Of a DNA stretch of 33,275 bases, positions 25,085 through 25,819 are shown in pieces. Source of the DNA: a virus; IMG/VR virus record IMGVR_UViG_3300027038_000027; one strand, written 5' to 3'. Made by a program: the position numbers and the translations under genes. Below the pieces are notes generated by a model. It was not told where the DNA came from. It worked only from the letters and a program-made list of their open reading frames with translations, and did no database searches. Numbering within the stretch: position 1 is the first letter of the stretch; each line of letters opens with the position of its first letter.

Positions 25085-25513
25085 CTATCTTGCTTTCCAG
25101 TTCTCCCAATACGTGCGAATCATCCAATCTTGCACCGCTTCTTCATTTGGTTCTGCAGGAATTGGAGATGTATTGATGAGATCTTTGAGTGATCGTTCTA
25201 GATTTCCTGCCATTGTGAGTACAGCATCAAGTTCTATGCGCCCATAGCGCACATCCATGAGAAATTCTCGTGTACCTTCAACCATTGGTAGGACCAGACG
25301 ACCAGTCTGCATTAGCTCTACACCTTGAAATCCTAAACGAAGCATGTGCATTGCATACTTAGTGTCGTATCCATGCTTTGCCTCAAGCTCAGGACGGTGT
25401 ACTTTCTTTTGTCCTCGCTCGCCTAATAATCTTTGTCTCTGTGCTTCCATGTAACCAAGAAATCTTTTTCCAGCATAGCGACTGATAACGCGGTTGTTGG
25501 TTCTACAGCACAC
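25085..25513 (-). pseudogene. C-terminal half of a Pol-beta-superfamily nucleotidyltransferase (KYAMHMLRLGFQG region); the N-terminal half is on the opposite strand
   Basis: HGYDTKYAMHMLRLGFQGVELMQTGRLVLP matches the C-terminal helical domain of YcgL/RlaP-like nucleotidyltransferases (family name recalled, not searched). No N-terminal nucleotidyltransferase core lies upstream on this strand. Confidence 0.45.
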
Positions 25514-25819
25514 GGATTAGCAATGCCAGGAACTGATGATCGCGACGAAATGGGTGTCTGCATCGAGGATATTTCATCTGTTGTAGGATTTAAAGAATTT
25601 GAGCAATTCATCTATCGAACAGCTGCTAAACGTGAACAGAAACTAGATGCCCCATCGGCTCCTGGCGACCTCGATTTGTGCATTTACAGTTTGCGCAAAT
25701 ATCTCCGATTAGCTCTGCAAGGAAATCCATCCGTTATCCTTCTGCTTTTCGTTAAAGATTTCGTGAAGTGTGATGCTAGAGGTGCTCAGCTACAAGAACT
25801 CGCTCCACTAATAGCGTGA
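25433..25819 (+). pseudogene. N-terminal catalytic half of a Pol-beta-superfamily nucleotidyltransferase (GS...DDRD motif), inverted relative to its C-terminal half
   Basis: VVGSTAHGLAMPGTDDRDEMGVCIED matches hG[GS]x9-13Dh[DE]h. DLCIYSLRKYLRLALQGNPSVILLLF matches the NPN/LExLF region. The only start is a TTG, with no Shine-Dalgarno sequence, and it is on the opposite strand from all neighbouring genes. Confidence 0.45.

Follow-up and report, generated by a model that had tools for sequence, protein, structure and literature searches.

A nucleotidyltransferase gene of the RlaP family split onto opposite strands of a phage-like genome, very probably by a fixed inversion with an adjoining deletion

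The window, i.e. the whole stretch of DNA that was analysed (33,275 nt), is part of a 33,926-nt contig from an ENA sediment metagenome (ERZ936689, k127_14317). Its source, an uncultured phage-like genome found in sediment metagenomes, looks like a novel phage. No match to GenBank phages was found for positions 24000-27500 (blastn). Neither a terminase nor a portal or capsid protein could be recognised on the contig (Pfam, PHROG) and few domain matches were obtained, which places the element very far from described phages. Large ORFs (856, 1105, 458, 376 and 326 aa) are found on the plus strand at positions 1..15075; most of them lack a Pfam or PHROG match, the exceptions carrying TIG/PKD domains and the Gp80 podophage fibre domain. 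A long minus-strand block includes a primase-like gene, an ATP-dependent DNA ligase, DUF3307, DUF932, Ku and a vault-protein-like gene. Over about its first 190 residues, the primase-like ORF (252 aa, 18036..18794, minus strand) is similar to the PHROG families DNA primase and primase/helicase (E 1e-46), and its C-terminal end carries a SWIM zinc finger. The 825-aa MVP-like protein (27381..29858, minus strand) includes a major-vault-protein shoulder domain (PF11978, E 3.7e-26), a Vault_3 repeat (E 7e-11) and a weak SPFH/Band_7 match. In this block, only a 98-aa RlaP fragment and a 62-aa ORF are called on the opposite strand; the initial annotation, which placed every neighbour on the minus strand, is correct for almost all of them.

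Five contigs are 100% identical to the window across both junctions of the locus described below, in the same orientation, and none of them ends at a junction. They originate from ERR2108705 and ERR2108706 (MEGAHIT k127), ERR2108702 (Logan), NCBI (GCA_900217745.1) and JGI (3300027112); these assemblies may stem from related samples of one site, and what they establish is reproducibility, not evolutionary depth. Elsewhere, assembly breaks recur: the independent contigs L002 and L003 stop at the same position, 23781, and L003 and L004 share a start at 31736. No repeated k-mer accounts for these breaks; strain-level variation is possible there.

The genes and parts of genes considered here are the following:
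19218..20291, minus strand: ATP-dependent DNA ligase gene (PF01068, E 1.4e-15).
25085..25489, minus strand: non-inverted 3′ part of the nucleotidyltransferase (NTase) gene, 134 codons and a stop (25085-25087), C-terminal helical domain.
25490..25813, plus strand: inverted segment, 324 nt, 108 codons, N-terminal Pol-beta NTase domain (AVVGSTAHGLAMPGTDDRDE...GDLDL...ELAPLI).
25786..26181, minus strand: gene of an acidic protein of 131 aa (alignment with P0122, P0123 and P0124).
26385..27197, minus strand: Ku gene (Pfam Ku), used as synteny marker for the comparison with a related contig (L010).

Two ORFs overlap on opposite strands: 25433..25819 (plus strand, 128 aa) and 25085..25513 (minus strand, 142 aa). 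Both match Pfam RlaP (PF10127), the former over profile positions 25-97 (E 5e-14, 53.0 bits) and the latter over positions 120-245 (E 4e-6, 27.1 bits); both scores exceed the gathering cut-off of the family (23 bits). In tblastn searches, residues 22-129 of intact homologues are placed at 25490..25813 on the plus strand (75% identity for P0001) and residues 129-261 at 25489..25091 on the minus strand, so the halves abut at 25489|25490. The truly homologous parts are 25490..25813 (plus strand) and 25088..25489 (minus strand). The ORF overlap (25433..25513) is antisense read-through only, each frame running into the other half. The 3′ part reads VISRYAGKRFLGY...HGYDTKYAMHMLRLG...YWENWKAR and a stop. 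When re-joined, the halves give a protein with a single colinear PF10127 match (86.7 bits, profile 25-243), which aligns with intact proteins of 260-290 aa at 100% query coverage and 65-69% identity; 3261 proteins match it at E ≤ 0.001. The two halves are one RlaP/PF10127 nucleotidyltransferase gene, split onto opposite strands. The initial annotation had proposed precisely this, i.e. halves of one family that are split by an inversion of about 330 bp and diverge at about 25490, and the complementary profile matches bear it out.

The AF2 model of the re-joined protein (pLDDT 82.6, pTM 0.81) comprises an alpha/beta domain (residues 1 to ~102) and helices (113-242); from these limits, the break falls in the inter-domain linker. 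The motifs GS..HG, TDDRDE and GDLDL are present, and G4, S5, D16, D17, D19, D60 and D62 are invariant in the alignment (A1); the three presumed catalytic aspartates are among the conserved Asp residues. In the window, the two domains lie on opposite strands and form a single polypeptide only in silico. A complete ORF with a start and an N-terminal helix is lacking: 3 residues precede the G-S motif, versus 12-42 (median 23) in intact homologues. A sequence search of PDB gave no match, and a Foldseek search of PDB only weak generic ones to Pol-beta NTases. GC skew is slightly positive in the sliding windows spanning 25400-25699, which take in the left portion of the inverted segment; on both sides of them it is negative.

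The junctions and the short inverted pair found near them are the following (no strand applies):
25484..25491: left arm of an imperfect inverted pair (GATAACGC), straddling the junction.
25487..25490: left junction, between the 3′ part and the inverted segment (homologue residue 129 belongs to both tblastn HSPs; junction columns of the alignment of 121 sequences).
25810..25814: right junction, between the inverted segment and the acidic-protein gene; ~81 nt of ancestral sequence are missing here.
25814..25821: right arm of the imperfect inverted pair (GCGTGATC), wholly within the acidic-protein gene (codons D-H-A).

At the left junction, the family consensus is AP-x-I-[VI]-S-R and the window has ...APLI (plus strand) and VISRY (minus strand), so that one codon is surplus or ambiguous, either AAC (25487-89) or ATA (25811-13). 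The breakpoints are located to within 3 nt, the right one at 25810-25814 instead of 25816 as initially annotated. The inverted pair that had been noticed at the ends is present and matches at 7 of 8 positions, its left arm being at 25484-25491 and not at 25483-25490. An equal or better pair is found within 8 nt of both ends in 15% of random placements: the pair is at chance level. No longer inverted repeat is present at the ends of the segment. Since the left arm straddles the junction, it was made by the event and did not pre-exist as such.

The acidic protein is authentic up to codon 123 (..EEDHA, 25813-25815). Its homology stops right after an invariant H-A; where a conserved A-x-LEELPIE tail would be expected, its last 8 codons (ISGASSCS, then a stop) come from reading on in antisense into the inverted segment. 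Besides its own database entry, three homologues were found, all ending in ..[NE]HA[AD]..EELP... The MAFKLTK... proteins (~130 aa) constitute a small uncharacterised family with a conserved C-terminal HA..LEELP motif, carried by at least 20 IMG/VR viral contigs and one alphaproteobacterial MAG (loci L011 and L017-L036); the family has no Pfam or PHROG match. No RlaP gene lies within 3 kb of the acidic-protein homologue at any of 20 IMG/VR loci or in the MAG.

The ancestral state is set by a sole relative, L010, a 1397-nt contig of another ENA assembly (ERZ27268094, k141_16366), which carries the closest homologue of the acidic protein (72% identity). Its DNA is 74-81% identical to that of the window. 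It includes, on one strand, the 3′ end of Ku, a small ORF, the acidic-protein gene, 8 nt, and an NTase gene starting with MNYRQMAEHHTILRAVVGSTAHGLAMPG (MNYRQMAEHHTILRAVVGSTAHGLAMPGTDDRDEMGVCIED). Positions 1259-1395 of L010 have their counterpart on the opposite strand of the window (81% nucleotide identity), starting exactly at 25490 (GCGGTTGTT). Positions 1178-1258 (81 nt) have no counterpart in the window; they contain the last 10 acidic-protein codons and stop, the 8-nt spacer, where the ribosome-binding site would lie, and NTase codons 1 to 14, the ATG among them. The N-terminal NTase peptide was not found anywhere in the 33-kb window (tblastn with intact homologues). The event is thus an inversion of 324 nt with a deletion of ~81 nt at the upstream end. 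Only 46 codons of the homologous part of the NTase are covered before L010 ends, so that the left junction is fixed no closer than one codon.

The initial annotation further held that re-inversion would restore an intact gene of about 260 aa. When the segment is re-inverted in silico, the acidic-protein ORF is out of frame, reading ..DHARLLVLQHTD (..EEDHARLLVLQHTD) to a stop, and the NTase frame before AVVGS consists of a stop followed by RGKTRTGRIGNRRRSR, with no ATG, GTG or TTG upstream of the G-S motif. As the ~81 missing nt comprise the NTase start codon with the rest of its first 14 codons, as well as the acidic-protein gene's 3′ end, re-inversion provides no start codon and the gene is not restored.

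Other contigs give less on the ancestral layout. The closest Ku relatives (57-58% identity) are found in other phage-like contigs, L014, which also has a ligase, and L015; neither contains the NTase module, and in L015 Ku is directly followed by DUF932. Ku and the acidic protein used as single queries against IMG/VR gave nothing, and scanning metagenome_contigs with Ku was equally fruitless. The best intact NTase homologues belong to phage-like contigs (L009, 3501-5102 and 11854-12822; L008, 1784-4125), which were considered as syntenic relatives and rejected, their contexts being phage-like and not syntenic with the window. One of these contexts includes Ro60/TROVE and an RNA ligase (linked on L009), which fits the association of the RlaP family with RNA repair; the other includes NAMPT and a phosphoribosyltransferase (NAD salvage).

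The initial annotation had left a programmed switch, a fixed inactivating inversion and an assembly artefact as options, and the second is the one supported by the evidence: the locus very probably carries a real structural mutation, a pseudogene fixed by an inversion plus deletion that arose by illegitimate recombination. The ancestral order on one strand would have been Ku, the small ORF, an acidic protein of 132 aa, an 8-nt spacer, the RlaP NTase and DUF932. One illegitimate (non-homologous) recombination would have flipped 324 nt (25490..25813) and removed ~81 adjoining nt, taking away the tail of the acidic-protein gene, the spacer for ribosome binding, and the NTase start together with the rest of its first 14 codons; the same outcome would be reached by two closely linked events. 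The catalytic domain would thereby have become antisense, the helical domain a headless ORF, and the acidic protein would have acquired a foreign 8-residue tail. Either of two routes may have been taken: end joining, in which a broken and excised fragment, partly resected, would have gone back in reverse orientation, or template switching during replication. The history in a single event and its mechanism are read from the junctions. Junction microhomology is 0-1 nt, by eye and with L010 (74-81% identical) as proxy for the ancestral junctions. With the same proxy, no convincing microhomology for a template switch was found, a trivial 5-nt CACGC/GCGTG pair having the wrong geometry. The lack of junction homology, the surplus codon and the adjacent 81-nt loss are together the signature of illegitimate recombination, and the junctions have the features of end-joining scars (no long homology, small indels: an 81-nt deletion and a 3-nt surplus). 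The 81-nt loss makes the rearrangement irreversible.

Ku of phages has a role in genome circularisation; the mycobacteriophages Corndog and Omega encode one. As this phage encodes Ku and an ATP-dependent ligase, end-joining enzymes would be at hand. A natural end-joining scar made by the phage's own Ku and ligase, from a break fragment resected by ~81 nt and re-ligated backwards, is conceivable and rather unlikely. Phage Ku and ligase as the cause are an attractive guess, their presence being a coincidence worth noting, not evidence. If true, the locus would be a rare natural footprint of phage end joining on the phage's own DNA, beyond genome circularisation.

The two halves total 242 codons, with neither stop nor frameshift, and keep 99 of the 101 conserved family columns (≥95%; 121-sequence alignment), the homologues keeping a median of 100 and a minimum of 92. 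The absence of stops, frameshifts and losses of conserved residues suggests that the event is evolutionarily recent. Relative to L010, 18 codons differ synonymously and 5 non-synonymously; this divergence mostly predates the event. An antisense catalytic domain without a start codon and a headless helical ORF point to a pseudogene, and a recent pseudogene is the simplest reading of the sequence, with a probable loss of function. The preserved halves would also fit continued selection. The alternative is that the split arrangement is functional, both halves, or just the C-terminal helical half and the acidic protein with its new tail, being expressed separately under selection. The undecayed reading frames with their 99 of 101 conserved positions, the break within the inter-domain linker and the ORFs of 98 aa (ATG 25523) and 121 aa (ATG 25450) predicted by gene callers are in its favour. 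It is nevertheless improbable. The plus-strand fragment is antisense to the surrounding minus-strand operon, without usable start codon or ribosome-binding site: neither a promoter-like site nor a Shine-Dalgarno sequence was found for it, as initially annotated for the latter, and its only in-frame ATG (25523), overlooked at that time, is situated beyond the G-S motif and the initial strand of the NTase fold. Catalysis by RlaP requires the cleft between both domains, and the C-terminal helix packs on the N-terminal domain (PMC12776372). The same split was found in no other genome.

Less probable still is an intragenic inverton, in which a site-specific recombinase would flip 25490..25813, switching the NTase on and off or recoding it. 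Classical invertible segments are those of Hin, Gin and Cin (Salmonella, phage Mu, P1). Intragenic invertons exist in bacteria (Bacteroides; bioRxiv 10.1101/2023.03.11.532203), and the segment is precisely bounded, has a length that is an exact multiple of 3 (324 nt), carries the 7/8-nt inverted pair at its ends and separates two undecayed halves. Against this, the 81 nt lost include the start codon, so that a flip back cannot restore the gene; the pair is at chance level with a left arm straddling the junction, and a crossover at it would leave the two parts of the gene out of frame. Inversion mediated by this 8-nt pair was rejected for that reason, for its junction-made left arm and for the unexplained 81-nt loss. 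No recombinase or resolvase Pfam match was found on the called genes of 17.8-33.9 kb or on ORFs of at least 120 aa elsewhere on the contig, which may not be the whole genome and in which many ORFs lack a Pfam match; the initial annotation likewise saw no invertase in the window. The five assemblies cross both junctions unbroken in a single orientation at contig level; such uniformity across data sets was named at the outset as speaking against a switch. No close intact allele of the NTase exists among 5.8 billion clustered proteins, the best being only 69% identical. An exact 32-mer of the inverted segment was not found in metagenome_contigs, viral_contigs or genome_contigs; these collections also lack the known JGI source contig, so that nothing on orientation follows from this negative. 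The change was neither conservative nor reversible (~81 nt lost relative to L010, one surplus codon at the junction). Three of the four features that define an inverton are lacking, the presence of both orientations having been examined at contig level only. With these 81 nt missing, there is next to no chance that the segment flips reversibly.

An MDA inverted chimera or a de Bruijn graph error is also very unlikely: the data are metagenomic contigs only and MDA chimeras are typically small inversions of this type, with short junction homology, but identical junctions were obtained from three ENA runs by two pipelines (MEGAHIT k127, Logan) and in the NCBI and JGI records, no 17-mer that could mislead a graph assembler recurs on either strand of the window, and chimeric molecules, being random, would not prevail in every assembly. 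It is concluded that the rearrangement is real; its orientation is the only one seen at contig level.

For annotation, the fixed inversion plus deletion means that the called 98-aa and 121-aa "genes" are two pieces of one dead RlaP gene and that the tail of the 131-aa acidic protein is artefactual. The locus is a worked example of a fixed inversion-deletion told from an inverton or a misassembly by contigs and one syntenic relative. Wider interest is limited to the coincidence of Ku and ligase, a possible lead on end-joining footprints in Ku-encoding phages.

The resemblance to invertons is superficial only. As in those of Bacteroides and in the Hin/Gin/Cin systems, a short segment within a coding region is opposite to the rest of the gene; unlike them, the locus shows a single orientation, lacks real inverted repeats and has lost 81 nt, and no recombinase was found.

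Enzymes of the RlaP family extend damaged RNA 3′ ends (RNA 3′-OH) by one or two nucleotides and are common in phages, including T4 (NrdC.11); in the crystal structure of PfRlaP (P. fluorescens), an N-terminal NTase domain is associated with a C-terminal helical domain (PMC12776372). The gene described here shares with PfRlaP and T4 NrdC.11 the NTase and helical domains, the G-S motif and the acidic residues (DDRD, DLD). It differs from them by its inverted catalytic domain and by the deletion of the start and first 14 codons. It also differs by its neighbours, which are Ku, DUF932 and a DNA-ligase-type enzyme, with no adjoining RNA ligase, RtcB or Ro60 (no match to RNA ligase, RtcB or TROVE among called genes of 17.8-33.3 kb or ORFs of at least 120 aa).

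The junctions resemble end-joining scars by their little or no microhomology, their surplus codon and their adjacent deletion. Like the Ku-encoding phages Corndog and Omega and the Ku/LigD end-joining systems of bacteria, the contig has both a Ku homologue and an ATP-dependent ligase.
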